From assembly GCA_028707125.1 (NCBI GenBank), contig JAQTUX010000002.1:272355-336354 (forward strand): a DNA stretch of 64,000 nucleotides, in the 5' to 3' direction. Below the pieces are notes generated by a model, which searched no databases, was not told the origin of the DNA, and worked only from the letters and a program-made list of their open reading frames with translations. Numbering within the stretch: the stretch's first letter is position 1; every line of letters begins with the position of its first letter. This DNA is from Candidatus Omnitrophota bacterium. GTDB lineage: Bacteria > Omnitrophota > Gorgyraeia > Gygaellales > JAQTUX01. A program made the translations under genes and the position numbers. Of this stretch, positions 4,393 through 52,337 are shown one piece after another.

Positions 4393-5241
4393 CTATATAT
4401 TCTTTTCCAGTAATTGCCTGATCTTGGATCCTCTATCTACTTGCGCGCCGTAATCCCGAAACGGCTCTTCAAATGTCGCGGCTTCCTTCTTATAAAATGT
4501 CCCCAGGGCGATCGGCGCCTCTTTGTTATAATCCCACTCCCTTATTTTTTGCAGGGCGCCGTCATAGTTACGCGGGTCATGGTCTTTTAGTTCATACGCG
4601 TGCCTGGTATAATACTGATACATATTGTAGAAGGTAACGCATACCTGCAATACGTCTACCAGGGAAAATCCCTTGTGCGCCAACGCCTCCTTAAAAATAC
4701 CCTTAAGAAGCTCTATGCCGTGGGAATAACCCCTGGCAAGGAAGGTGGCGCCGCTTGAAAGCATAAGTTCGAGGGGATTTATGGGCAACTCCCTGGTGCC
4801 GAACGGCGTGGAGCGGCCCCTGAAACCCAACGGCGAAGTAGGTGTATATTGGCCGGTTGTAAGCCCGTATACCCGGTTGTTGTGTATGATCATTGTTATG
4901 TCTATATTGCGTTTAGCGGCAAATATGAGATGCTCCAAGCCCTCCCCGTAAGCGTCTCCGTCTCCGGCGAAGCCGATTACCTTTAAATCAGGGTTCGCCA
5001 GCTTTATGCCGATGGCTACCGGCACAACCCTGCCGTGTATGGAATAAAAACTGTTGACGTTGATATAATCAACTATCTTAGCGTGGCATCCTATGCCGGA
5101 AACCAGGACAACCTTCTCCAGAGGGAAACCCTCATTCCTCAACTCATCAAGTATGGCCTTGACAGCATTAAGGATGGCGAAGTTTCCGCAGCCCGGACAC
5201 CAGGTATTTACGGCGTAAGTGCCTAAGTCATTCTGGCTCAT
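4393..5241 (-). CDS. korB: 2-oxoacid:ferredoxin oxidoreductase, beta subunit (TPP-binding)
   Basis: 282 aa. The N-terminal Cys cluster (CPGCG…, Fe-S ligands) and the GDG…N TPP-binding fold are typical of OFOR beta subunits. Overlaps the alpha-subunit gene by 4 nt. Confidence 0.8.
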   Translation of the reverse strand: MSQNDLGTYAVNTWCPGCGNFAILNAVKAILDELRNEGFPLEKVVLVSGIGCHAKIVDYINVNSFYSIHGRVVPVAIGIKLANPDLKVIGFAGDGDAYGEGLEHLIFAAKRNIDITMIIHNNRVYGLTTGQYTPTSPLGFRGRSTPFGTRELPINPLELMLSSGATFLARGYSHGIELLKGIFKEALAHKGFSLVDVLQVCVTFYNMYQYYTRHAYELKDHDPRNYDGALQKIREWDYNKEAPIALGTFYKKEAATFEEPFRDYGAQVDRGSKIRQLLEKNI

Positions 5242-6890
5242 CTCATCGCCTCGCCTAATCTGGATTCTAACTCATCCAAAGAAAACGGCCTTCCATCGTA
5301 TTTCAGTATCATTTTGTCAACCTTCAGGCCGCGCGCTGACATAAGGCCCGCGAGCATTCCTGTGGCGTTATTTTCCACGCAGATTACCTTTTTGGCGCCT
5401 TTGAGCGCTTCACTGAACTGCTTTAAGGGGAACGGTGAAAGCACAAGCGGCTGTATCACCTTAAGCCCCAACTTTTCCGCTGCCTCAACGCATACACCTT
5501 TATTAGAGCCCCAGCAGACAACCGCGCATTCAGCAGAAGGATTACCGTACGCCTTTACCGCTCTATATTTCTCCAAATCCTGCGCCAGGTATTTCTCCTT
5601 GCGCAGGCGCTTATCGTAAGAAGAGGTGATCGTCGCGGGATCTTCAGTGGTTATACCGTAGTCATCGTGCTCATAACTGCTGGCCTTTATAACCGCGCCT
5701 TTACGCGGGACAAATGCCAGGGGAGAAACCCCTGTTTCCGTATTCAGGTATCTTTTATAATCACCGTCTTTATCCCATAAGAGCGGCGGTTCCTCTTTTA
5801 CGCTGTCTACGGCGGATGCCTCAAAGCTGAATGTTGCCTCGTTTAATGTCTTATCGGTCAGGACAAAACACGGTATCTGGTATTTCCAGGCGATGTTTAA
5901 CGCGACCGCTGACCAGTAACAGGCCTCTTCCGCGTCTCCGGGGGCTGTTACAAGCCTCACAAACTCTCCGTGACCGGCGTTTAGAACAAAATTCAGGTCT
6001 GCCTGCGCCGTATATGTGGGGACCCCTGTGGAAGGGCCTGGCCGCTGCCCCATGACAATAACTACGGGCAGCTCTGCCATACCCGCCAAACTCAACCCTT
6101 CATTCATCAGGCAGAAGCCGCCGCCTGAAGTGCCTACGGCGGCCTTCTCTCCGCAATAGGCGAAACCCAGCGCCATTAATATCACGGAAATCTCGCTTTC
6201 CGGATGAACCACCTTTAAGGAAAACTCCTTTGAAAGCCCGGCGAGAAAATGCAGGACGCCGGAAGAAGGTGTCATAGGATAGGCAATGTATGACTTAAGC
6301 CCTGCCTTAATAAGGCCTAAACCGATCGCTTCATTACCTGTAAATAGAGAAAAAGGCGCCTGAGATATCGCCGGCAGGGCAAGCGACTCTTCTGTTTCGT
6401 TGTAACCCCGCAAGGCGATCTTGATATTCAAATCGGCCTCTCTGGGAATATGTTTCTTAAATACCTCCTCCAGAATATCCTGTTTTATTCCCGCCGCCCT
6501 GCAAAAGGCGCCTATAATGCAGGAGTTGCGCATTATCGCGGAGCCGCCTTCTTCCTTGATCATCTTTTCTAAAGGCAGGCCGCTGCCTTTTGACTTAACC
6601 GTATCCGAATCATAGACTATCAGTGAGTTATCTTTAAGGCGGTGTTTGTGAAGGTCCACCGTATCCTGATTTAAGGCGAGTAGAACGTCTATCTTATCAC
6701 GATGAACAGCGATCTTTTTCTCAGACGCCCGGATAATAGCAAAGTTATGCCCCCCTCTTATAAGTGAGGGATAGTCCAGGTATACATATATACGCCAACC
6801 CAGGCGGTTGAGCAGATGCGCGATAAGGGAGGCGGCCTGGTTTATGCCCTCCCCTGCCTTTCCGCCGATAAGAACCGAGAAATCAGCCAT
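5238..6890 (-). CDS. korA: 2-oxoacid:ferredoxin oxidoreductase, fused gamma-alpha subunit
   Basis: 550 aa. N-terminal gamma-type domain (MADFSVLIGGKAGEGI…) followed by an OFOR alpha domain (…AYPMTPSS…); a two-subunit, 2-oxoglutarate/2-oxoisovalerate-type OFOR. Confidence 0.8.
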   Translation of the reverse strand: MADFSVLIGGKAGEGINQAASLIAHLLNRLGWRIYVYLDYPSLIRGGHNFAIIRASEKKIAVHRDKIDVLLALNQDTVDLHKHRLKDNSLIVYDSDTVKSKGSGLPLEKMIKEEGGSAIMRNSCIIGAFCRAAGIKQDILEEVFKKHIPREADLNIKIALRGYNETEESLALPAISQAPFSLFTGNEAIGLGLIKAGLKSYIAYPMTPSSGVLHFLAGLSKEFSLKVVHPESEISVILMALGFAYCGEKAAVGTSGGGFCLMNEGLSLAGMAELPVVIVMGQRPGPSTGVPTYTAQADLNFVLNAGHGEFVRLVTAPGDAEEACYWSAVALNIAWKYQIPCFVLTDKTLNEATFSFEASAVDSVKEEPPLLWDKDGDYKRYLNTETGVSPLAFVPRKGAVIKASSYEHDDYGITTEDPATITSSYDKRLRKEKYLAQDLEKYRAVKAYGNPSAECAVVCWGSNKGVCVEAAEKLGLKVIQPLVLSPFPLKQFSEALKGAKKVICVENNATGMLAGLMSARGLKVDKMILKYDGRPFSLDELESRLGEAMR

Positions 6891-7495
6891 TATTTTAGAT
6901 TGTCTGCGACCTTACCTACCATCTCTTTACCGGGTGTAAGTGTTTTCTCTCCCGGCTGCCATCTCGCGGGGCATACCTGCGCGGGATTCTCCCTGACATG
7001 CTTGAACGCCCTGAGCTTTCTTAATAATTCATCGGAATTCCTGCCTACCGGAAAATAATTCACCTCTGAGGCAACGAGTTTTCTATCGGGATCAACAATA
7101 AATGTGCCCCGCAATGCCAGTCCGGTTGACTCGTCGTAGACCCCGAAGGTCTTGGAGACAATATGAGTGGGGTCTGCCCCCATGGGGTACCTTATACCGG
7201 CCAGCAGCGCCTCAGATCTCTGCCAGGCGTAATGCACAAAATGAGTGTCGGTGCTCAGGGAAATCAACTCCGCGCCTTCTTTCCTGAGTTCTTCGTATTT
7301 TTCCGCCACATCAGCAAGTTCGGTGGGGCAGACAAACGTATAATCGGCAGGATAAAAGAAAAGTATCAACCAGTTGCCCCTCTTGGAGATGTCCGTGAAT
7401 TTGATCTTAGCGAAATCCTTCTTCTCGGTCAGGTAAACATCTATCTCGAACTCAGGGATCTTATCGCCTATCTTTAATATATTGATCTCTTCCAT
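6890..7495 (-). CDS. peroxiredoxin (AhpC/TSA family thiol peroxidase)
   Basis: Peroxidatic motif FYPADYTFVCPTEL. The start is trimmed to MEEINILK at 7495, preceded by GGAAGGAGG. Confidence 0.85.
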   Translation of the reverse strand: MEEINILKIGDKIPEFEIDVYLTEKKDFAKIKFTDISKRGNWLILFFYPADYTFVCPTELADVAEKYEELRKEGAELISLSTDTHFVHYAWQRSEALLAGIRYPMGADPTHIVSKTFGVYDESTGLALRGTFIVDPDRKLVASEVNYFPVGRNSDELLRKLRAFKHVRENPAQVCPARWQPGEKTLTPGKEMVGKVADNLK

Positions 7496-7548
7496 AAAGG
7501 GCCTCCTTCCCAACACTTTTATATCACCGAATCAGGAAAATGACAATA

Positions 7549-9219
7549 TTATTTTCCCTGCAGCGCCGCATCCAGGTCCTGCTCCGCGGTTGAGATCGGC
7601 TTGATACCAAACTTTTCTACCAGTACCTTAAGCACATTCGGCGAAACAAACGCCGGCAGCGAAGGGCCTAATCGTATGTTCTTGATGCCCAGGGCAAGAA
7701 GCGTGAGAAGAATGCACACCGCCTTCTGCTCATACCAAGATAAGACCAGCGACAAGGGAAGCTCGTTAACTCCGCATTTGAACGCCCCTGCCAGGGCAAG
7801 CGCTATCTGGATGGCGGAATACGAATCATTGCACTGGCCGCAGTCAAGAAGCCGCGGTATGCCGCCGATGTCCCCGAACTCCAGCTTGTTAAACCTGTAT
7901 TTACCGCAGGCAAGCGTAAGTATTACCGTGTCCCCGGGCGCCTTCTCGGCAAATTCAGTATAATAGTTCCTGCCTGACTTTGCCCCGTCGCAGCCGCCGA
8001 TAAGGAAGAAACGCCTTATCTTGCCTGCCTTGACCGCATCTATCACTTTATCGGCAACGCTAAGAACTGCGTTACGGGCAAATCCCACCAGTATCTCCTT
8101 ATCTTCCCTGTCATCCTTAAAGCCGCCGGCCTCAAGCGCCTTGTCAATGACCGCGCCGAAATCCTTTTTTCCGCCTTTGCCTTCTATATGCTTGACACCC
8201 GGCCAGGCAACCAGGCCCGTGGTAAATATCCTGTCCCTATAAGAATCCCCGGGCCTCTGGATACAGTTGGTGGTCATAAGGATACTGCCGGGGAAATCAT
8301 TAAACTCCCTTATCTGGTCCTGCCAGGCGCCTCCGTAGTTGCCCGCCAGATGCTTATATTTCTTCAATCCGGGATAGCCGTGCGCGGGCAGCATCTCTCC
8401 GTGGGTATATATGTTTATGCCTTTGCCCTCTGTTTGCTTCAACAACTCCTCCAGATCAAGCAGGTCATGTCCTGAAACCAGGATCGCCGGCCCCTTCCTC
8501 ACGCCCAGTGAGACCTTGGTGGGTTCGGGATGGCCGAAACGTTCAACGTGCGCGCCGTCAAGCAACTCCAGGCACTTCAGGTTCACCCTGCCGAAATCCA
8601 TGATCATGCCCAGTAGATCATCCGCTTTCAGGCCATCCCTCGTAATAAAGGACAGCGCCTTATAGAAGAAAGAGATTATTTCCTCATCCTTCTTACCTAA
8701 TATATAGACGTGGTCCGCGTAAGCAGCCATGCCTTTGAGGCCGTAAACAAGGATCTCTTTTAAGCTTCTTATGTCTTCATCAAGCGAGGGGTCGGACATT
8801 ATGCCTACTTCCTTACCCTGATCTATGAGCCCTTCCAGCGTATCAGCCGGCTCCCAATCGGTCTCCGCGGCAAGCTTACCCCTGAATTCCGCGCCGTGCT
8901 TATCTTTATAGGCCTTAAGAAACAGGCGCCTATTCTTCTCCTTCAGCTCGTACGCGCTCAATAAAAGCCCGCGTAATCTTTCCGGGTCAAAATCCACGTT
9001 GGTAACCGTGCTGAACAGGCCTTCAATTATAAAAATGTCGGTAGCCTCATCTCTTACGCCCAGCTCTCTGGCGGCATTCCCATAGACCGATATGCCTTTT
9101 AAAGCGTATATAAGCAGGTCCTGGAGCGCTGCCGTCTCCGGTTTCTTCCCGCATACGCCCGATACCGTACAACCCTTGCCGCCTGCCGCCTGTTCACACT
9201 GATAGCAGAACATACTCAT
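7549..9219 (-). CDS. hcp: hybrid cluster protein / hydroxylamine reductase
   Basis: 556 aa with N-terminal MSMFCYQCEQAAGGKGCT, the hallmark Cys motif of Hcp (prismane protein). Confidence 0.9.
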   Translation of the reverse strand: MSMFCYQCEQAAGGKGCTVSGVCGKKPETAALQDLLIYALKGISVYGNAARELGVRDEATDIFIIEGLFSTVTNVDFDPERLRGLLLSAYELKEKNRRLFLKAYKDKHGAEFRGKLAAETDWEPADTLEGLIDQGKEVGIMSDPSLDEDIRSLKEILVYGLKGMAAYADHVYILGKKDEEIISFFYKALSFITRDGLKADDLLGMIMDFGRVNLKCLELLDGAHVERFGHPEPTKVSLGVRKGPAILVSGHDLLDLEELLKQTEGKGINIYTHGEMLPAHGYPGLKKYKHLAGNYGGAWQDQIREFNDFPGSILMTTNCIQRPGDSYRDRIFTTGLVAWPGVKHIEGKGGKKDFGAVIDKALEAGGFKDDREDKEILVGFARNAVLSVADKVIDAVKAGKIRRFFLIGGCDGAKSGRNYYTEFAEKAPGDTVILTLACGKYRFNKLEFGDIGGIPRLLDCGQCNDSYSAIQIALALAGAFKCGVNELPLSLVLSWYEQKAVCILLTLLALGIKNIRLGPSLPAFVSPNVLKVLVEKFGIKPISTAEQDLDAALQGK

Positions 9220-13375: not shown

Positions 13376-13810
13376 CTATTTGTAATAGTCCAATCCCCTC
13401 TTTATAAAACGTTCGTCCATCCGCCTGGGTTCAAAAAACCTTCTGACGAACTGCCTTGCCTTTTGGATATCAAATTCCTTGCAGCAATAGATATCTATAC
13501 TGATGAAGTTTTTGGGGCTCAGGGTATGAATTACTATTGAGCTTTCAATAAGCGGGACCCAGCCCGAAAGGCCGGCCTTATCGGGGAACCTTACCCCGTC
13601 GCTCCTGAATATGTCCGGCGGGGCCTGCTTTTCCATTCCTAAATAACCTACGATCTCATCAAGGAACTGATAGCAGGTATGCAGGTCATCGCATACGCCG
13701 GGCTTGCAGTCATAAAGGTCAAGCAGCAGTTGATACCCGAAAACAGCCTTGATCTTTGGCTTCAGGTTTATCGCTGCTTCCTGCAGAGCTGCTGCGCTTT
13801 CTCTTGCCAT
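13376..13810 (-). CDS. speH: S-adenosylmethionine decarboxylase proenzyme (pyruvoyl-dependent, SpeH/class 1b)
   Basis: 144 aa. Contains the …LLLDLYDC… motif and the ESS self-cleavage site (…LIESSIVIHT…). Confidence 0.75.
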   Translation of the reverse strand: MARESAAALQEAAINLKPKIKAVFGYQLLLDLYDCKPGVCDDLHTCYQFLDEIVGYLGMEKQAPPDIFRSDGVRFPDKAGLSGWVPLIESSIVIHTLSPKNFISIDIYCCKEFDIQKARQFVRRFFEPRRMDERFIKRGLDYYK

Positions 13811-13882
13811 GTTTTTTATAATAAGTCCCTTCCTCTATCTGTGGTATATAATAAAACTAAGAAATAAAATAGTCAAGAAAAA

Positions 13883-14254
13883 TTATTGGGGCGAACCCGC
13901 CGCCCCGGCTTCCTTACGCGACCAATCCGACAGGAGGCCGTCTTTGTCAAAATAAACATAGATCTTCCCGGTATTGAAAAACTCCAGCGGATACCTGTAA
14001 AGCAGCCTCAGGCCGCCTTCATGCCGGCCCTCCAGGACCGGCTCGCCGTAAATATTTATGAACCTCTCCCGCGGCATGCCTCTTGCGATCTTTCCGTTTT
14101 TGATGTCGGAGGCAAGCAGATCAAACTTGGCTTCCTGCCTGCCGACCTGCCGTTGCATACTGCCCTGGCTTTCTCCCAGCGCCTTAAGCGTCATCAGCGG
14201 CCGGCCGCAGCCTGAGAGCATAATACAGAAACCAACATATAGAACTCTAATCAT
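13883..14254 (-). CDS. hypothetical lipoprotein
   Basis: Signal peptide with lipobox (…MLSGCGR…); no recognisable domain. Confidence 0.4.
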   Translation of the reverse strand: MIRVLYVGFCIMLSGCGRPLMTLKALGESQGSMQRQVGRQEAKFDLLASDIKNGKIARGMPRERFINIYGEPVLEGRHEGGLRLLYRYPLEFFNTGKIYVYFDKDGLLSDWSRKEAGAAGSPQ

Positions 14255-14397
14255 ATTGAATCTTAAACCCTAAACTCTAAATCCTAAACCCTAAATAAAC
14301 CCAAAACCCAAAATTCCAAACCCAAAACGCTATTGCTTTGTAATTGCGTGTTTTGAGTTTTGTGTTTTGACATTTGAGTTTGTTTAGAGTTTAGTGT
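14255..14397. repeat. long imperfect palindrome of 7-bp units: (AAAYCCT/CCCAAAA)n arm facing a (TTTRGGG-like)n arm
   Basis: The left arm (aaaccctaaactctaaatcctaaaccctaaataaacccaaaacccaaaattccaaacccaaaacgc) reads as CCCTAAA-type heptads. The right arm (gcgtgttttgagttttgtgttttgacatttgagtttgtttagagtttagtgtttagggtttagtgtttt) is its imperfect complement with TTTAGGG-type heptads. It lies between the pgi stop and the lipoprotein start. Confidence 0.8.
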
Positions 14398-15690
14398 TTA
14401 GGGTTTAGTGTTTTCCCTACCCAGCAACTCAAACATATTCTTTTTATATGCCTCAACACCCGGCTGATTAAACGGGTTGACACCCTGTATATACGCCGAT
14501 ATCGCTACCGCCTTTTCAAAAAAGAAAAACAGCGAGCCCAAAGAATACGCGCTTCTGTCGGCAATCTTGATTGACATATTAGGCACGCCGCCGTCCATAT
14601 GGGCCTTCCTGGTGCCCACGCGCGCCTGGTTATTGATAAAACTGAAGCCCTTGCCTTTTATATAGTCCAACCCGTCGATGTTTTTGTCCATGGCGGGGAC
14701 TTTAATTTCCCTCTTGGGCTTTTCTACGGCCATAAAGGTCTCAAACAGGTTCCTCGCGCCCTCCTGTATCATCTGGCCTATAGAATGCAGGTCCGTGGTC
14801 AAAACACACGACGCCGGGAATATGCCTTTGCCCTGTTTGCCTTCGCTCTCGGCGAAAAGCTGCCTCCACCACTCCGCGAGATAATACAGGCAGGGATTGA
14901 AACCGGAAAGTATCTCTATATTTTTTCCCTTACGATAAAGCAGCTGCCTTGCCGCGGCGTACCTGTAGGAAATGTTTTTCTCAAGGTCAAGCGCGGAACA
15001 AAGATCTTTCATATCAGAGCCGCCCCTAAGCAGTTCCCTTATGTCTATCCCCGAGGCGGCCTGCGGCAATAAACCTACGGGGGTGAGCACGGAAAACCTG
15101 CCTTCAACGTCCTGGGGTATGAAAAATTTCCGAAAGCCCTCTGAATCGGCTATCTTCTTCAGCGTCCCCTTTTGCCTGTCCGTTGTGCAGATGATCCTTT
15201 TCTTGAGCTGCCGGCTGGAATACCTCTTCTTCATATAGTTATATATCACCCTGAACGCGGCTGCCGGCTCAAGCGTCGCGCCTGATTTGGAGATCACATT
15301 TACGCAAACATCCCTGCCCTTTAGCCCGTCCAACACATCCTGAAGGTAATCAGCGTCAAGGTTAATGCCGGCAAACACGACCTTAAGCCCCTCAGGGCGG
15401 CAAAATTCCAAAGCAGCCCGCGAACCTAAGTAAGACCCGCCGATCCCTATGACTACCAATACCTCGCTTGTCTCCCGAATCTCTCCGGCGCAATTCTCAA
15501 TATCTCTGATCAGCTCATCAGGCGTATCATCCGGCAGATCAAGCCAGCCCAGGGAAGCCCCGCCTTCCCCGGTTCTGTCGATAAGAAGCTCATGCGCCCG
15601 TTTTACTTCACTGAAAATAGAAGCAAAATCTCTGCCGGATATAAAAGGCGATAAATTACCACAATCTAGCTCTATCCTGGTCTTCGGCAT
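14398..15690 (-). CDS. pgi: glucose-6-phosphate isomerase (short bacterial form)
   Basis: 430 aa with conserved PGI motifs (…GIGGSYLG…, …VISKSGATLE…). Confidence 0.85.
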   Translation of the reverse strand: MPKTRIELDCGNLSPFISGRDFASIFSEVKRAHELLIDRTGEGGASLGWLDLPDDTPDELIRDIENCAGEIRETSEVLVVIGIGGSYLGSRAALEFCRPEGLKVVFAGINLDADYLQDVLDGLKGRDVCVNVISKSGATLEPAAAFRVIYNYMKKRYSSRQLKKRIICTTDRQKGTLKKIADSEGFRKFFIPQDVEGRFSVLTPVGLLPQAASGIDIRELLRGGSDMKDLCSALDLEKNISYRYAAARQLLYRKGKNIEILSGFNPCLYYLAEWWRQLFAESEGKQGKGIFPASCVLTTDLHSIGQMIQEGARNLFETFMAVEKPKREIKVPAMDKNIDGLDYIKGKGFSFINNQARVGTRKAHMDGGVPNMSIKIADRSAYSLGSLFFFFEKAVAISAYIQGVNPFNQPGVEAYKKNMFELLGRENTKP

Positions 15691-31740: not shown

Positions 31741-31836
31741 TTAGCGAAAAGTGTAAAGCGCAAAGCGTAAAACCAAAACTTAAAGTTTAAAGTTTTACAC
31801 TTTAGTTTTGCGCTTTTCGCTTTACGTTTTACGCTT
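31741..31836. repeat. heptad-phased imperfect palindrome (GCGNAAA)n…(TTTNCGC)n, copy A
   Basis: Seen directly: agcgaaaagtgtaaagcgcaaagcgtaaaaccaaaacttaaagtttaaagttttacactttagttttgcgcttttcgctttacgttttacgctt. Shares a 42-nt core (1 mismatch) and a 23-nt block with the element at 50221-50345. Lies between the pfkA start and the ahcY stop. Confidence 0.85.
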
Positions 31837-38858: not shown

Positions 38859-38983
38859 AGTAAAGCAGAACTAAGAATTAAGAGCTAAGAACTAAGATGA
38901 CATCTATGAACCCATCCAAAACAAACAACAAAAAAATTCCCTTTTGCCCCTTAATTTTTTCTTAGTTCTTAATTCTGCCTTTA

Positions 38984-40470: not shown

Positions 40471-40997
40471 GCCCGCTCCCCCAACTTATAACGCGCGAAT
40501 CTCTTTACTACTATGTTCTCTCCCAGCTTGCCTATAACAGAGCCAAGGTAATCCTTAATGATAACGGAGCCGTCCTTCACGAACGGCTGTTCCATCAGGC
40601 AGTGCGCCTTGAAGAATTCATCTTTCTTATCAACATCGGCCAGCGCCTCCTTTGGCACGTCTTCCTTCTTTATATATAAAGGCGCCGCGGCCGCTATCTG
40701 TATGGTAATGTCCTTCACAAAGTGCCGAAAGTCTTCGTTTCTTGCCACGAAATCCGTCTCGCAGTTGACCTCAAGCAAAACGCCTGTCTTGTGGTCATGA
40801 TGCACGTAGGAGGCGATAAGGCCCTGTTTGGCCGACCTGTCGGCTTTTTTCGCCGCCATCTCCAGCCCCCTCTTACGCAATATCTGCTCCGCCTTTTTTA
40901 TGTCTCCTTCGGCCTCTTCCAGCGCGCGGCGGCAGTCGGCCACGCCCGCGGATGTCTTCTCCCTGAGTTGTTTGATTAAATCCAAGCTGATATTCAT
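40467..40997 (-). CDS. tsf: elongation factor Ts (short form)
   Basis: 176 aa; N-terminal UBA-like …[16 protein letters not shown]… and …[12 protein letters not shown]… motifs. Confidence 0.85.
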
Positions 40998-41905
40998 TAT
41001 TTCTTACCCTTCCTTTCCCTGGCCTTCTCTTCATCTTCCTGCGCCCTTAACTTCTTCGCGATCTTTTCCTTCTTTTTTTCCTCTTCGAGCAGCGCCTCCG
41101 CGTCTATTTCCAACTCGGGCTTTTCAACCGCGGGCTCCGTTGGCTCCGCCGGGGCCTCGCTTCCCTTCTCCATGCGCACGCCCTCCTGCGACAGATAAGA
41201 AAGGAACTTCTTGCGGCCTTCGGCAACGCTGTCGGCTACCAAAGAGGTGATTATGCTGATCGACTTCATAGCGTCGTCGTTGCCCGGTATGGGATAATCC
41301 ACCAGTTCAGGGTCGGAGTTTGTGTCTATTAAAGCTACGATGGGTATACCCAGCTTCCTCGCCTCTTTCACCGCCGTCTCTTCTTTCTTCGTGTCTATCA
41401 TAAATATCGCTGCCGGCATCTTTTCCATTTTAATTATCCCGGAAAAATTCTTCTTTAACTTCTCGAGCTCTTTGGTCAGCTGCGACACCTCCTTCTTGGA
41501 AAGCATATCAAAGGTGCCGTCTTCCCTCATTTTCTCCAGCTCGTTAAGTCTGCCGATACTCCTTCTTACGGTGGCAAAATTGGTAAGCAGCCCGCCAAGC
41601 CATCTGTTGACCACATAAAACACCCCGCAGCGCTCGGCCTCTTTTCTAACTATCTCCTGCGCTTGATGTTTTGTGCCGACAAAAAGGAGCCCTTCGCCTT
41701 TGGCAGCCAGGTCCATCAGGAAATCCCTCGCGGCATTAAGGCAATCCACCGTTTTTTCCAGGTCGATTATATATATGCCGCTTCTCTGGCCAAAGATGAA
41801 CTTCTTCATCTTGGGGTTCCACCTCTTCTTCTGATGGCCGAAATGAACCCCTGCTTCTAACAGTTTTTTAAGTAATTCGTCTGACAAAACGCCTCCCTCC
41901 TTCAA
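40997..41905 (-). CDS. rpsB: 30S ribosomal protein S2 with about 50-aa charged C-terminal extension
   Basis: 302 aa; S2 core (…VHFGHQ…RWNPKM…) plus a low-complexity Glu/Lys-rich tail. Preceded by GGAGGGAGG. Confidence 0.9.
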   Translation of the reverse strand: MKEGGVLSDELLKKLLEAGVHFGHQKKRWNPKMKKFIFGQRSGIYIIDLEKTVDCLNAARDFLMDLAAKGEGLLFVGTKHQAQEIVRKEAERCGVFYVVNRWLGGLLTNFATVRRSIGRLNELEKMREDGTFDMLSKKEVSQLTKELEKLKKNFSGIIKMEKMPAAIFMIDTKKEETAVKEARKLGIPIVALIDTNSDPELVDYPIPGNDDAMKSISIITSLVADSVAEGRKKFLSYLSQEGVRMEKGSEAPAEPTEPAVEKPELEIDAEALLEEEKKKEKIAKKLRAQEDEEKARERKGKK

Positions 41906-41992: not shown

Positions 41993-42055
41993 GATTTTTC
42001 CCTGAATTTTGCCATTAAGCGGGGATTATCCTCCTTCGCTCATCAAATTGCTAAC

Positions 42056-42099
42056 GATGGTAGAGCTTCGGAGGATTAATCCGCCGAAGCCCTACCATC
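42056..42099. promoter_or_regulatory. 44-bp perfect palindrome GATGGTAGAGCTTCGGAGGATTAATCCGCCGAAGCCCTACCATC
   Basis: Seen directly. The centre is GGATTAATCC, and related GGATTATCC motifs lie at 42023-42031 and 42125-42133, the last overlapping the msbA-like stop. It sits between the msbA-like 3' end and the rpsB promoter and is not followed by a U-run on the transcribed strand. Confidence 0.6.
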
Positions 42100-42127
42100 A
42101 TTTACCCATTGATGTGGCGTAGGCGGA

Positions 42128-49542: not shown

Positions 49543-50226
49543 TCAATATCTTCCCTTGCAGGCCTTCACACACACCCCGCAGATATACTGGCCGACCAGG
49601 CCGCTGTTTTGAAACTCCTTCAGTTTTTCAAAACAAGCGGTGTGATCAAAATCTTCCCGTCTTTGCTTTATGGCCCCTCGGGGGCAGGCCTGTATGCAGG
49701 CGCGGCAGTCCCCGCAGCCATCCGCGGCCGGGCTGTCCGACTTAAGCGGCATATCGGTAAGAATGGTAACGATCCTGAACCGGCTGCCCAACTGCCTGTT
49801 TACCAGAAGGTTATTCCTGCCGATCCAGCCCAGGCCCGCGAGGTAACCGATCTTTTTATGAGAAAGATGCGCGCTCTGTTTTACCCAATCCAGGATCTGA
49901 GAAGCGGGTATGGGTAACGCGGAAAAACCCCTGCCGGATATCAAACCTGACAGCCTCAATGCAATCTGGTCAAGCATCATATTGACAGCGCGGTAATGAT
50001 GAAAATAAAGTTTGGTGGGGTGGTCTTCTATTTCATCCAGTATCGGCCCTGACAGCGCGGCCCCCAGGCACACAGCCCTGTCTAATTTCTCTAAGACAGC
50101 GGCGGCGATAGTAAATTCATTCTTTACCCCGGATATATCCGCCACGCCGAACAGCCGCGCCCCAAGCTCCATCGCCTTCTCTTTGAGCAGATTGTAATTA
50201 TTCGTAGTATCCATATCACTCAACAA
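49543..50226 (-). CDS. QueG-like (DUF1730 plus 4Fe-4S dicluster) protein, short form
   Basis: 227 aa; …GLGWIGRNNLLVN…GSRFRIVTILTD… resembles the epoxyqueuosine reductase core, followed by CGDCRACIQACP and CGVCVKAC. It is shorter than canonical QueG (about 380 aa). Confidence 0.45.
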   Translation of the reverse strand: MLSDMDTTNNYNLLKEKAMELGARLFGVADISGVKNEFTIAAAVLEKLDRAVCLGAALSGPILDEIEDHPTKLYFHHYRAVNMMLDQIALRLSGLISGRGFSALPIPASQILDWVKQSAHLSHKKIGYLAGLGWIGRNNLLVNRQLGSRFRIVTILTDMPLKSDSPAADGCGDCRACIQACPRGAIKQRREDFDHTACFEKLKEFQNSGLVGQYICGVCVKACKGRY

Positions 50227-50345
50227 ACGTAGAGCGTAGAGCGCAAAGCGTAAAACTAAAACTTAAAGTTTAAAGTTTTTTGTTCTGTAGTTTTAAGCTT
50301 TACACTTTAGTTTTGCGCTTTTCGTTTTACGCTTTTCGCTATCTT
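50221..50345. repeat. heptad-phased imperfect palindrome (GCGNAAA)n…(TTTNCGC)n, copy B; right arm overlaps the mnmG 3' coding end
   Basis: acgtagagcgtagagcgcaaagcgtaaaactaaaacttaaagtttaaagtttt…acactttagttttgcgcttttcgttttacgcttttcgc. Shares a near-identical core with copy A. The segment 50293-50334 encodes the Lys-rich MnmG tail KRKTKSAKLKCKA. Confidence 0.85.
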
Positions 50346-52209
50346 TCAAACCAATCTTCTTAATCCACACCATCAACACCGCGACCGCCGCGGGCGTGAC
50401 CCCGGGTATACGCAGCGCCTGCCCCAGAGACAGCGGCCTTACCCTGCCCAATTTATCCCTGATCTCGCGTGAAAGGCCGTTGAGCCCGTTATAATCCATG
50501 CCCGCCGGGACCTTTATCTTTTCCAGGTGGCGGAAGCGTTCAACCTCCGCCTTTTGCCTCTCGATGAACCCGGAGTATTTCATTTCCGTTTCAATTAAAA
50601 ATGCCGCCCTTTCATCGAGGCGCAAGCCCCGGCAATCCAGCTCCCGTAATCTGCGCAGGTCTATCTGCGGGCGCTTCAGCAATTCCGCGAGCGTAACCTC
50701 TTTTCTCAAGGCCGGGCTGCCGAATGAGTTAAGCTTTGAGTTAACCTCCCGCGTCGGCTTTATCCTGCTTGACATTAGCGCCTCTGTGCCTTCCTTTACC
50801 GCCTTTATTTTATCCCGGGTCTCTCTGTATTCCTCCCTGCTTACAAGGCCGAGCCCAAACCCCATCTCTCTTAACCTTATATCGGCGTTGTCCTCTCTCA
50901 ACAGGAGCCGGTATTCTACCCGCGAGGTAAACATGCGGTAGGGCTCATCAGTGCCTTTTGTGGTAAGGTCGTCTATTAAAACGCCTATGTAGGCCCGCGA
51001 CCTTTCCAATACAAAAGGGCCTTTGCCCTTTACCGTTAAGGCGGCGTTTATCCCGGCGATCAGGCCCTGGGCAGCCGCCTCTTCGTAACCGGTCGTCCCG
51101 TTTATCTGGCCGGCGAGATAGAGATTTTTTACGCGCTTTGTCTCTAAACTTGGCAGATTTTCCCTGGGGTCCACGACGTCGTGTTCTATGCCGTATCCGA
51201 AATCTATGATCCCGGCATGTTCCAGCCCTTCTATGGAATGGACCATTTCAACCTGCGCCTCTTCAGGTAAACTTGTGGATATGCCGTTAGGGTAGATCCG
51301 GTTATCCTCTCTGCCTTCCGGCTCAAGGAAAACCTGGTGCCTCACCCTGTCGGGGAATTTCACTACTTTATCTTCAATGGACGGGCAATAACGCACACCC
51401 GTTGCCTTTATCAGGCCTGTATAAAGAGGCGAATACTTCAGGTTGTCGCGGATGATCTTGTGCGTGCGTTCGTTTGTATATGTTATATAACAAGGCGCCT
51501 GTTTTAATTTAAGCCCCTTATTGGTAAAAGAGAACGGCCTGGGGTCGGCATCGCCTTCCTGGATCTTGAGACGGGAAAAATCTATCGTCGCCTTATCAAG
51601 CCGGGCGCAGGTGCCTGTTTTAAAACGCATGATCCCAAACCCCAGGGACCTCAATGACTCGGATAATCCCATGGCCGCCTCTTCATCCTGCCTGCCTCCG
51701 GGAAAATTCCTCAAGCCTATATGGATCTTGCCTCCGGAGAATGTTCCGGGCGCGATAACAACCGTTTTTGAGAATATCTCTTCATCTTTAGTCCTGACGC
51801 CGTTTACGCTGCTGCCTTTGACCAGCAGGGATATGACCTCCGCCTGTTTAAGGCAGATGTTGCTTTGTTTTCCCAGGGCCTTTCTCATATATTCTTTATA
51901 CCGAAAGCGGTCTATCTGGGCCCGGCTTGACCAGACAGCAGGCCCCTTTGACGCGTTTAAGATCCTGAACTGCAGTCCGCAGGCATCTGCCGCCTTTGCC
52001 ATCTCCCCGCCCAGGGCGTCTATCTCCTTTACCAGCTGGCCCTTGCCTACACCGCCGATCGCGGGATTGCAGGACATATGGCCGATCTGCTCCAATCTCA
52101 AGGTAACCAGCAGGGTATTACAACCCATCCTTGATGCAGCTAATGCAGATTCAATACCTGCGTGCCCGGCGCCGATGACTATGACATCATACATATTATT
52201 TGTCGTCAA
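50293..52209 (-). CDS. mnmG: tRNA uridine-5-carboxymethylaminomethyl(34) synthesis enzyme MnmG (GidA)
   Basis: …YDVIVIGAGHAG… FAD motif and a conserved MnmG body. The ORF-track start is TTG at 52209; a canonical ATG (MYDVIVIG) lies at 52194. Confidence 0.85.
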   Translation of the reverse strand: MTTNNMYDVIVIGAGHAGIESALAASRMGCNTLLVTLRLEQIGHMSCNPAIGGVGKGQLVKEIDALGGEMAKAADACGLQFRILNASKGPAVWSSRAQIDRFRYKEYMRKALGKQSNICLKQAEVISLLVKGSSVNGVRTKDEEIFSKTVVIAPGTFSGGKIHIGLRNFPGGRQDEEAAMGLSESLRSLGFGIMRFKTGTCARLDKATIDFSRLKIQEGDADPRPFSFTNKGLKLKQAPCYITYTNERTHKIIRDNLKYSPLYTGLIKATGVRYCPSIEDKVVKFPDRVRHQVFLEPEGREDNRIYPNGISTSLPEEAQVEMVHSIEGLEHAGIIDFGYGIEHDVVDPRENLPSLETKRVKNLYLAGQINGTTGYEEAAAQGLIAGINAALTVKGKGPFVLERSRAYIGVLIDDLTTKGTDEPYRMFTSRVEYRLLLREDNADIRLREMGFGLGLVSREEYRETRDKIKAVKEGTEALMSSRIKPTREVNSKLNSFGSPALRKEVTLAELLKRPQIDLRRLRELDCRGLRLDERAAFLIETEMKYSGFIERQKAEVERFRHLEKIKVPAGMDYNGLNGLSREIRDKLGRVRPLSLGQALRIPGVTPAAVAVLMVWIKKIGLKDSEKRKTKSAKLKCKA

Positions 52210-52337
52210 TTACCAATTAGCCAATTCCCAAATCCCAATAAATGACCAATTAGTCAATTCCCAATTGGACCTTGGGTAATTGAGCATTTATTTGGCATTG
52301 GTAATTGGTCATTGGAAATTTATTCGGATTTATTATA
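52206..52337. repeat. heptad-phased imperfect palindrome (CCAATTN)n…(NAATTGG)n
   Basis: caattaccaattagccaattcccaaatcccaataaatgaccaattagtcaattcccaattgg / ccttgggtaattgagcatttatttggcattggtaattggtcattggaaatt. Fills the whole mnmG-apgM intergenic space. Confidence 0.8.

Follow-up and report, generated by a model that had tools for sequence, protein, structure and literature searches.

In a 64,000-nucleotide (nt) stretch from a Candidatus Omnitrophota bacterium (GenBank assembly GCA_028707125.1, contig JAQTUX010000002.1, positions 272,355 to 336,354), hereafter the window, we analyzed an imperfect palindrome made of degenerate 7-nt units that takes up the spacer separating pgi from a small lipoprotein gene. 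It belongs to a repeat family found in many other contigs, and at this locus it lies between two minus-strand genes, with the following layout.

14262 to 14416, no strand assigned: the whole palindromic element (~155 nt), which occupies the entire pgi/lipoprotein spacer (repeat search and folding).
14265 to 14328, plus strand: left arm, A/C-rich and G-free, ~9 units (TAAACCC, TAAACTC, TAAATCC ... AAAACCC; inverted-repeat search and Tandem Repeats Finder [TRF]).
14329 to 14349, no strand assigned: centre of 21 nt, GCTATTGCTTTGTAATTGCGT, a small apical stem-loop in predicted folds.
14350 to 14413, plus strand: right arm, T/G-rich and almost C-free (GTTTTGA ... TTTAGAG, TTTAGTG, TTTAGGG; repeat search and TRF).
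14285 to 14305, plus strand: core signature TAAACCCTAAATAAACCCAAA, including an irregular, phase-shifting 11-nt unit (pattern search, zero chance matches expected).
14373 to 14393, minus strand: the core signature repeated in mirror position, reading TAAACTCTAAACAAACTCAAA (pattern search).
14398 to 15690, minus strand: pgi, the upstream gene (glucose-6-phosphate isomerase, PF00342 by Pfam, 430 amino acids [aa]), whose tail, ...ELLGRENTKP and stop, terminates within the element.
13883 to 14254, minus strand: the downstream gene, a small lipoprotein of 123 aa with lipobox MLSGC (open reading frame [ORF] call; ATG at 14252-14254).

The repeat search returned a single dominant inverted repeat, whose arms, each of 64 nt, show 78% complementarity and enclose a gap of 21 nt. 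TRF assigned the left arm a period of 7 (10.3 copies, consensus TAAACCC, 70% match between units) and reported period-7 arrays in the right arm too. G is absent from 14259 to 14328 (70 nt on the left side), and a single C (14371) occurs between 14350 and 14414 on the right side. The original prediction, made by a model from the letters, had pointed to a striking head-to-head palindrome in a prokaryotic intergenic spacer, with CCCTAAA (twice), CTCTAAA, TCCTAAA and CCCAAAA (three times) in the left arm and TTTAGGG, TTTAGAG and TTTAGTG in the right; all of these motifs are present in the letters, and the arrangement between pgi and the lipoprotein gene was borne out by the repeat search, the ORFs and Pfam. 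The right arm encodes the final four to five pgi codons together with the TAA stop (14398-14400, minus strand), while the lipoprotein ATG lies 8 nt beyond the stem base and has no Shine-Dalgarno (SD)-like motif. Folding, a check that had been proposed along with that description, predicted one long imperfect hairpin on both strands: −56 kcal/mol (z −7.0) for minus-strand RNA, the main stem of which spans 14413 to 14262, and −55.4 kcal/mol (z −9.0) for plus-strand RNA. Single-stranded DNA (ssDNA) gave −33 kcal/mol (z −7.9), and in each of the three cases 0 of 200 shuffles was as stable.

The likeness to plant telomeres, on which the original prediction had laid stress, proved superficial. Although the left-arm consensus can be rotated into CCCTAAA, and thus matches (TTTAGGG)n of plant telomeres, the element consists of degenerate inverted TAAAYYC arrays inside a bacterial operon and has just three exact copies (CCCTAAA at 14268 and 14289, TTTAGGG at 14397-14403). 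The window as a whole holds seven exact CCCTAAA/TTTAGGG heptamers, three of them in the element, against 13 expected by chance, and further palindromes in the window are built on other heptamers (AGCGTAA, CAATTAC and AGAACTA). Eukaryotic contamination, which had already been thought improbable, is ruled out together with a telomere by these counts and by the bacterial gene context: the flanking genes (pgi, the lipoprotein gene and an S-adenosylmethionine decarboxylase gene) are bacterial, the flanks carry Omnitrophota housekeeping genes, and the MnmG protein of the window is 100% identical to an NCBI protein encoded on a 510-kb contig of a Candidatus Omnitrophica metagenome-assembled genome. 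A related idea is that the G-rich strand forms a telomere-like G-quadruplex. The minus strand does offer six GGG runs, spaced 4-11 nt, and G-rich heptamer repeats of Xanthomonas and Nostoc have been studied as quadruplex motifs (PMC4692102). However, the loops in the 14262-14416 element measure 11, 4, 8 and 18 nt, a hairpin of high stability competes, AGGA, AGAG or AGAA replaces GGG in most members of the family described below, and the other palindromes of the window lack G-runs, so that we regard a quadruplex function as very unlikely.

Palindromes and repeats are readily mis-assembled, so we also considered whether a chimeric join, or the collapse or expansion of a low-complexity palindrome, had produced the window copy. 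Two independent Logan contigs of run SRR22315508 are 100% identical to the window (16636-14385 and 14292-11223) and extend from each flanking gene 29-31 nt into the adjoining arm. They break within both arms, which leaves the inner 92 nt (14293-14384) without independent cover and is what an artefact might produce. Against this, the independent assembly reproduces both gene-to-arm junctions exactly, pgi and the lipoprotein gene are also adjacent in a related strain (L244, see below), and ~90 other contigs from many assemblies share the architecture, length and complementarity. Since matching architecture recurs in more than 160 independently assembled contigs, there is no evident assembly artefact and we give that explanation hardly any weight, while the number of inner units in the window copy remains less certain.

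The palindrome had been treated as singular, and in this respect the picture changed: the window contains three to four further heptamer palindromes, detected by TRF, inverted-repeat search and a custom antidiagonal hairpin detector.

31743 to 31836, no strand assigned: sister palindrome of AGCGTAA/TTTACGC type, between the S-adenosylhomocysteine hydrolase and phosphofructokinase (PFK) genes.
50225 to 50340, no strand assigned: sister palindrome of AGCGTAA type, of the same subfamily as the 31743 copy, between mnmG and a Fer4 gene.
52205 to 52320, no strand assigned: sister palindrome of CAATTAC/CCCAAAT type, between apgM and mnmG.
38866 to 38980, no strand assigned: a looser AGAACTA/AAGAATT heptamer array in the tRNA-Gly/tRNA-Leu spacer, accompanied at a distance of ~60 nt by an inverted partner of 17 nt.

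This amounts to four to five heptamer palindromes in 64 kb. All heptamer arrays of the window are intergenic, the A-rich arm precedes the T-rich arm in every heptamer palindrome on either strand, and lag-7 periodicity is found in four of the five long hairpins, with lag-7 identities of the heptamer palindromes of 0.68-0.72. Both AGCGTAA-type copies share a near-identical stretch of ~40 nt. One of them (50293-50340) encodes with its arm the 16-residue tail DSEKRKTKSAKLKCKA of MnmG (633 aa, NCBI protein P0121); MnmG is 56-64% identical to other Omnitrophota, homologues cease aligning ~19 residues short of its C-terminal end, and the tail is probably a by-product of element insertion. Period-7 arrays reach ~100 per Mb in the window (51% GC) and the Omnitrophota loci, compared with 26 per Mb in loci of other phyla, while the density of period-5 and period-6 arrays does not differ between the two groups. 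In their tandem 7-nt units, their intergenic position and the over-representation of period 7, the elements resemble bacterial heptanucleotide simple-sequence repeats.

Other heptamer arrays were also seen in related loci. The AATTAAG/AATGAAG unit type, as in 38866-38980, forms four to five arrays in Omnitrophota locus L017, and further arrays occur at L017 5874-5926 and 6540-6568, L005 8606-8638 and L006 15513-15547 (CAGTCGA/CAGTCCA, AGTAGTT and GTAGTAT). The CAGTCGA/CAGTCCA array of L017 resembles CAACAGT, the unit of cyanobacterial short tandemly repeated repetitive (STRR) sequences. Diverse heptamer repeats seem to be a general trait of Omnitrophota. Beside mnmG in other organisms, we observed a period-7 palindrome (AGGTCAG/AAGTCTG) at L080 9244-9364 (Nitrospirae) and a palindrome of period 8, AGAAGCTG, at L033 13735-13861 (Syntrophorhabdus).

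The wider family came to light through Omnitrophica WOR_2 locus L004, where a ~80% identical element at the apgM/mnmG junction carries the 11-nt unit CTAAAYAAAYYC in the middle of both arms. From the comparison of the window with L004 we derived a 21-nt search pattern, TAAAYYCTAAAYAAAYYCAAA, and the family is ascertained through this single pattern. Within the window, the pattern matches both arms of the pgi element (14285-14305, plus strand; 14373-14393, minus strand) and nothing else, with zero matches expected by chance. It also matches at least 120 metagenome contig stretches and 41 IMG/VR viral contigs. Among the metagenome matches listed, 90 of 123 are complete palindromes, with a median span of 136 nt, ~62 pairs and 78% complementarity, and the window copy shares these family values for span, pairs and complementarity. 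The arms are inverted copies of one consensus, which reads (TAAAYYC)3-4, TAAACAAATTC, (AAAWNYC)3-4 and a short centre in both arms; it comprises a conserved CTAAA with two variable bases and one 11-nt interruption per arm. Unit positions T1, A2, A3, A4 and C7 are 80-99% conserved, while positions 5-6 vary.

Contigs with the family range from 27 to 65% GC. Judged by its rhamnose isomerase (RhaA), contig L180, with 65% GC, is Planctomycetota-like, and the IMG/VR viral contig L239 bears phage tail and neck genes. The family therefore spans at least two phyla of the Planctomycetes-Verrucomicrobia-Chlamydiae (PVC) group plus phages and is multi-copy within genomes, with the proviso that taxonomy is known for few family contigs and, among the metagenome matches, for L180 only. 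A literature search returned no description of a heptamer-palindrome family in Omnitrophota or Planctomycetes, nor of TTTAGGG-like bacterial repeats, so this ~140-nt heptamer-built inverted-repeat family is apparently both widespread and undescribed.

Could each copy have arisen where it stands? Under such a scheme, polymerase slippage, to which 7-nt units would be prone, would expand heptamers in the spacer and a template switch would make the inverted arm, with no movement between sites. Going by the account of Mrazek 2007 given in PMC4692102 and PMC4679880, no class of simple-sequence repeats is more over-represented in many bacteria than the heptamers, and slippage was proposed as the cause. 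Our data agree with this in part: period-7 arrays, many of them with different units, are ~4 times more frequent in Omnitrophota loci, the number of units varies among copies, and complementarity between arms persists under register shifts of 7 and 14 nt (0.60, 0.50 and 0.43). However, units shaped by slippage only should be near-identical, whereas here they are degenerate within a conserved layout and core. One layout (outer TAAAYYC, 11-nt unit, inner AAAWNYC) and one 21-nt core recur in more than 160 contigs of different organisms; copies at different sites of the same contig are 0.79 identical, compared with 0.64 ± 0.045 between contigs; and the same two nested insertions, CCTGCCTACCGGCAGGCAGG and GATGAGAGGAAyyAAATyTTCCTTTCT, are found in several copies. 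The shared layout, the nested insertions and the likeness within contigs indicate that whole elements are copied. We therefore consider origin in place improbable, and slippage probably reshapes the copies afterwards.

The nested insertions merit a description of their own. CCTGCCTACCGGCAGGCAGG is a perfect palindrome of 20-24 nt, inserted at differing places of elements in the unrelated contigs L103, L168, L180, L183 and L200, and has the look of another, very small mobile palindrome with heptamer arrays as its target. The other insertion, a hairpin, occupies one right-arm position in L083, L107 (two copies), L206, L236 and L241; it is present in L236 and absent from the otherwise near-identical L204 and L219.

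At the pgi site, the element is polymorphic for presence and absence. L244, which Logan assembled from a different run, matches the window at 95-96% identity along either flank and lacks the element; its pgi and lipoprotein genes overlap by 8 nt.

14217 to 14431, no strand assigned: the segment replaced in L244 (215 nt in the window versus an unrelated 67 nt at L244 1579-1645).

The pgi product ends ...ALLGRND (427 aa) in L244 and ...ELLGRENTKP (430 aa) in the window, and the lipoprotein starts with MTDRVRTLLLLCLCAAASGC and MIRVLYVGFCIMLSGC, respectively. The gene ends beside the element (14217-14254 and 14401-14431) are only ~50% identical to L244, in contrast to the flanks, and reflect either a short recombination tract from a distant lineage or locally raised mutation beside the palindrome. 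A second site allows comparison across lineages, since the gene order apgM-mnmG-fer4 is conserved in Omnitrophota. The apgM/mnmG spacer measures ~0-60 nt in L002, L006 and L021 (with an ordinary GC-rich terminator hairpin in L021) and 108-148 nt in the window, L004, L017 and L246, where it contains a heptamer palindrome of varying sequence; in L003 it holds a partial heptamer array. The adjacent mnmG/fer4 spacer is 0-38 nt long in all loci but the window. For the phage copy of the L213 group, a search for an empty-site variant among the viral contigs returned six filled contigs only.

Elements are placed without regard to the orientation of neighboring genes. With genes in the metagenome loci taken from crude longest-ORF calls, 62 of the 63 elements that have called genes on both sides are intergenic, usually 0-30 nt from both ORFs. 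Junctions with an element are co-directional in 70%, convergent in 16% and divergent in 14% of cases, compared with 73, 15 and 12% of junctions without one (p = 0.87), and this equal mix is not what would be expected of a dedicated terminator or 5′ leader. The upstream ORF terminates inside the element in 14 of 43 co-directional cases. Because 7 is not a multiple of 3 and the units carry TAA (TAG in the other arm), all three frames are stopped: within 5-19 nt (plus strand) and 12-26 nt (minus strand) for the window element, and within a median worst-frame distance of 36 nt for the family, compared with 71 nt in arm-wise shuffles.

Next, we compared the two arms of the same element with arms of different elements, and found that the sequence of the arms is conserved while the helix is not maintained by compensatory change. 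Cognate arms scored 22.5 for pairing versus 22.3 for arms of different elements, with a median rank of 31.5 of 67. At core-anchored columns, cognate complementarity was lower than with shuffled partners (0.654 versus 0.674 ± 0.006; 0 of 1,000 shuffles as low), and at variable columns the deficit was 0.417 versus 0.459 ± 0.010 (all 1,000 shuffles higher); these shuffle controls ignore phylogeny, although kinship would normally raise cognate pairing and not lower it. Neither strand compositional asymmetry nor ascertainment through the search pattern explains the deficit, which stayed when elements were oriented by transcription and when variable columns outside the core, as a control for the pattern, were considered (0.375 versus 0.424 ± 0.013). 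In the transcription-oriented elements, G.U pairs numbered 132 and A.C mismatches 182, with an excess of G.U in 10 elements and of A.C in 30, and sense and antisense folding energies of family elements did not differ significantly. Thus, too-perfect pairing appears to be selected against. Long perfect palindromes are known to be unstable in bacteria, and a loss of perfect palindromes from the family would be in keeping with this.

Avoided pairing between cognate arms bears directly on the usual functional-hairpin interpretation, against which it argues. Under that interpretation, the palindrome would be a structured, symmetric RNA or DNA element, i.e., a bidirectional terminator, an mRNA-stabilizing or processing hairpin (REP-like or an RNase III substrate), a cruciform or a nucleoid-protein site. 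The predicted hairpins are very stable on both strands, the position is intercistronic, the L017 element ends in a run of U8, and the orthologous apgM/mnmG spacer of L021 harbors the GC-rich terminator hairpin in place of a heptamer palindrome, all of which would suit a structural role. However, besides the lack of covariation, sense-strand G.U pairs are not preferred, folding energy does not depend on the strand, and divergent junctions are not avoided. The stem is AU-rich with a mismatch about every 7 bp, and a U-tract is usually absent, as it is after the stem of the window element. A scan of 13800-14800 for sigma-70 promoter and intrinsic terminator consensus sequences detected nothing within the element (14255-14420), which is not a classical terminator. 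Rfam gave no match to the element at the gathering score and, at a permissive E-value, generic plant miRNA hairpin models only (36 bits versus thresholds of at least 90). Taken with the evidence for it, this leaves a structured element a rather improbable explanation. The units are contiguous 7-mers without spacers, so a CRISPR array was not indicated either (weak match to CRISPR-DR63, E = 0.84). Two further candidates were dropped: -10-like hexamers of the 3′ arm (TAGGAT, TAGAAT and TAAGAT) driving leaderless transcripts, which by eye fit the window copy and L004 but not the PFK and mnmG copies, and intrastrand triplex motifs (PMC4666352), which were judged not relevant.

Because the element is multi-copy, crosses phyla, is gained or lost site by site and is absent from a 95-96% identical strain, we read it as dispensable and probably mobile (selfish), and not as a regulator of the pgi operon. 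Put more fully, the pgi palindrome would be one copy of a dispersed repeat that the host can do without and that is probably mobile; it would be related to the heptamer repeats of other bacteria and tolerated by virtue of fold-back and three-frame stops. We rate this proposal at about an even chance. On this proposal, copies would be made whole, as already imperfect palindromes, perfect palindromes would be lost, and the elements would come to occupy very short intergenic spacers, with the hairpin itself not being the selected feature. Two properties may make such insertions bearable. First, a stop in each frame within approximately three units on either strand would protect neighboring genes, since a gene running into the element gains only a few codons. 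Second, a co-transcribed element would fold back, bringing the upstream stop and the downstream start next to each other at the base of an imperfect helix of ~60 bp. At the window locus, the 5′ arm contains the pgi stop at a depth of 13-15 nt, and from this geometry a ribosome terminating there could open the outer helix and free the 30 nt before the lipoprotein ATG. Both the hairpin form and the missing target duplications are compatible with spread by a single-strand (IS200/IS605- or REPIN-like) route or by recombination between strains, and for the window copy the replacement tract in L244 suggests recombination.

Several observations weigh against a dispensable mobile repeat. The empty site of L244 is not clean, as the differences extend into the genes, over ~24 nt where pgi ends and ~40 nt where the lipoprotein gene starts; the segment represents a replacement tract and not a clean insertion, which suggests allelic replacement by recombination more than fresh transposition. 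The longest direct repeats flanking the elements are distributed as in mismatched flanks, giving no sign of target-site duplication, and no transposase or autonomous parent element was seen in the loci examined, where no systematic search was made and Pfam covered 8 of the ~60 window proteins. Given that none of these three was found, we infer mobility from the distribution only. Moreover, the apgM/mnmG junction carries a heptamer palindrome in five of eight Omnitrophota lineages (the window, L004, L017, L246 and, partially, L003), and such repeated occupancy might point to a function that has been kept or to a hot spot for insertion. An SD-like motif precedes 30 of 59 window genes but none of the four genes directly downstream of heptamer palindromes, albeit in a small sample. 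The CTAAA motif is conserved across phyla. Finally, the phage L212/L239 carries the A-rich arm alone, in sense orientation, upstream of three to four consecutive structural genes: three to four such arms (L239 2391-7144) are located 60-110 nt before the genes, each followed by (ACGAGCG)n and the ATG, and constitute a repeated leader or promoter cassette made from the heptamers of the family, an arrangement that scarcely looks like junk.

On the strength of the CTAAA conservation, the apgM/mnmG occupancy, the downstream genes without SD-like motifs and the phage arms, we retain as the main rival a cis-acting signal read as single-stranded RNA. Here, the CUAAA-NN array, A/C-rich, G-free and without structure of its own, would be bound by a conserved RNA-binding factor, candidates being ribosomal protein S1, cold-shock proteins, CsrA-like proteins and Rho (for which it would offer C-rich, G-poor loading), and would set translation initiation, polarity or decay of neighboring cistrons, with the inverted arm acting as a mask. 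That sequence is conserved rather than pairing, that cognate arms avoid perfect pairing and that elements abut start codons would be expected of such a signal, and similar proposals have been made for the TAACTGA repeats of Beggiatoaceae (PMC4679880) and the heptamers of Nostoc (bioRxiv 10.1101/2022.06.06.494920). However, the element is dispensable at the pgi site between closely related strains, convergent junctions, which offer no downstream start codon, are occupied at the background rate, it is the U/G-rich and not the A-rich arm that adjoins the downstream gene in palindromes, and the heptamers differ completely among elements of one genome. We therefore regard a cis-acting signal as unlikely, although it deserves to be taken seriously. 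More far-reaching, and in our view improbable, is the idea that the heptamer arrays are the cis-element of an undescribed single-stranded nucleic-acid recognition system of PVC bacteria that phages exploit. A host protein would then read CUAAA every 7 nt on the G-free arm, for which the U/G-rich arm would serve as an imperfect mask, and the palindrome, far from being junk, might act as a switch that couples or uncouples neighboring cistrons through translation start, Rho loading or decay. In a variant of this idea, the palindrome would be a self-harmless hairpin element that spreads via ssDNA without target duplication and carries all-frame stops on both strands, with ribosomes passing from stop to start across the helix base.

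Among previously described repeats, STRR heptamers were reportedly the subject of work on cyanobacteria by Mazel in 1990. The closest parallel in arrangement is provided by Xanthomonas, in which each genome has 70-75 convergent pairs of GGGAATC arrays that form inverted repeats (Rehm et al. 2015, PMC4692102). Like the GGGAATC arrays of Xanthomonas and the GGGGA(C/T)T arrays of Nostoc (PMC4692102), the elements described here are intergenic, degenerate heptamers with a G/C run and an A/T run near gene ends, and their length and sequence vary between close relatives; as in Xanthomonas, arrays of one heptamer are paired head to head across the two strands. They differ in the unit (TAAAYYC), in the fixed layout, where an 11-nt unit shifts the phase and a 21-nt core is conserved, in extending across phyla and phages, and in that quadruplex potential is not a family trait. 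The cyanobacterial STRR/heptamer repeats and the Beggiatoaceae TAACTGA repeats (PMC4679880; bioRxiv 10.1101/2022.06.06.494920) are likewise intergenic tandem heptanucleotides, often a few nt from start codons, with a patchy phylogenetic distribution that suggests horizontal spread. TAACTGA carries stop codons, as TAAAYYC does, and the Nostoc units TTCAAAA and GAC(C/T)AAT also occur in elements analyzed here. In contrast, the STRR and TAACTGA repeats are for the most part direct arrays, in which 2-8 (up to 43) units are nearly identical, and do not form palindromes whose two degenerate arrays follow a defined architecture.

REP and REPIN elements (PMC3733652, PMC3116915) resemble the family in being high-copy, intergenic, non-coding inverted-doublet hairpins of ~100 nt that form within-genome families, insert between co-directional genes and leave no target-site duplication. 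The differences concern the ends and the arms: among the ends of ~120 copies inspected, which read (A/T)AAAYYC, there is no conserved GTAG/CGTC tag, the arms are AT-rich heptamer arrays and not GC-rich palindromes of 20-40 bp, and no RAYT transposase was identified among the 8 of ~60 window proteins scanned. The GTAG at 14417-14420 (minus strand) beside the window copy consists of pgi codons and is not common to the family. Correia elements and Rickettsia palindromic elements are small palindromic insertions that overlap gene ends. With these and with miniature inverted-repeat transposable elements (MITEs), the family shares short, non-autonomous inverted repeats that show presence/absence polymorphism, are co-transcribed and can alter neighboring ORFs. 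Unlike in MITEs, target-site duplication is lacking, no related insertion sequence was seen in the loci examined (again, no systematic search was made), and the entire element is an inverted repeat with a heptamer substructure.

Intergenic heptamer repeats were noticed 35 years ago and are known from cyanobacteria, Xanthomonas and Beggiatoaceae, with their function and origin still unsettled. To these, the present analysis adds a defined family that can be searched by its 21-nt core and fixed architecture, its distribution across phyla and phages, and a comparison of filled and empty sites at strain level. With this family, one can ask how repeats spread without target duplication and what lets compact operons accept 140-nt insertions between genes that are coupled in translation. 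In practical terms, the elements break short-read assemblies and lengthen annotated ORFs, as with the MnmG tail.

Some minor observations concern the rest of the window. Approximately 59 of the 62 called genes are on the minus strand, and plus-strand GC skew is −0.10 to −0.15 throughout; the strand bias and the uniform negative skew together indicate that the window lies on one replichore, with genes co-oriented with replication. At 42041-42114 (also 42024 and 42124), a near-perfect 74-nt palindrome, CATCAAATTGCTAACGATGGTAGAGCTTCGGAGGATTAATCC..., without heptamer periodicity, lies within the 223-nt spacer upstream of the ORF at 40997-41905 and has three GGATTATCC / GGATTAATCC motifs. It had no Rfam match at the gathering score and could be an operator or an RNA of some kind. 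The longest gap in the otherwise packed window, 824 nt at 1974-2796, contains no ORF of at least 90 aa and no Rfam match at the gathering score. Lastly, in L246, an Omnitrophota contig 75% related to the window, the ribonucleotide reductase (5081-8536) holds an intein with a LAGLIDADG endonuclease domain, according to precomputed Pfam assignments.

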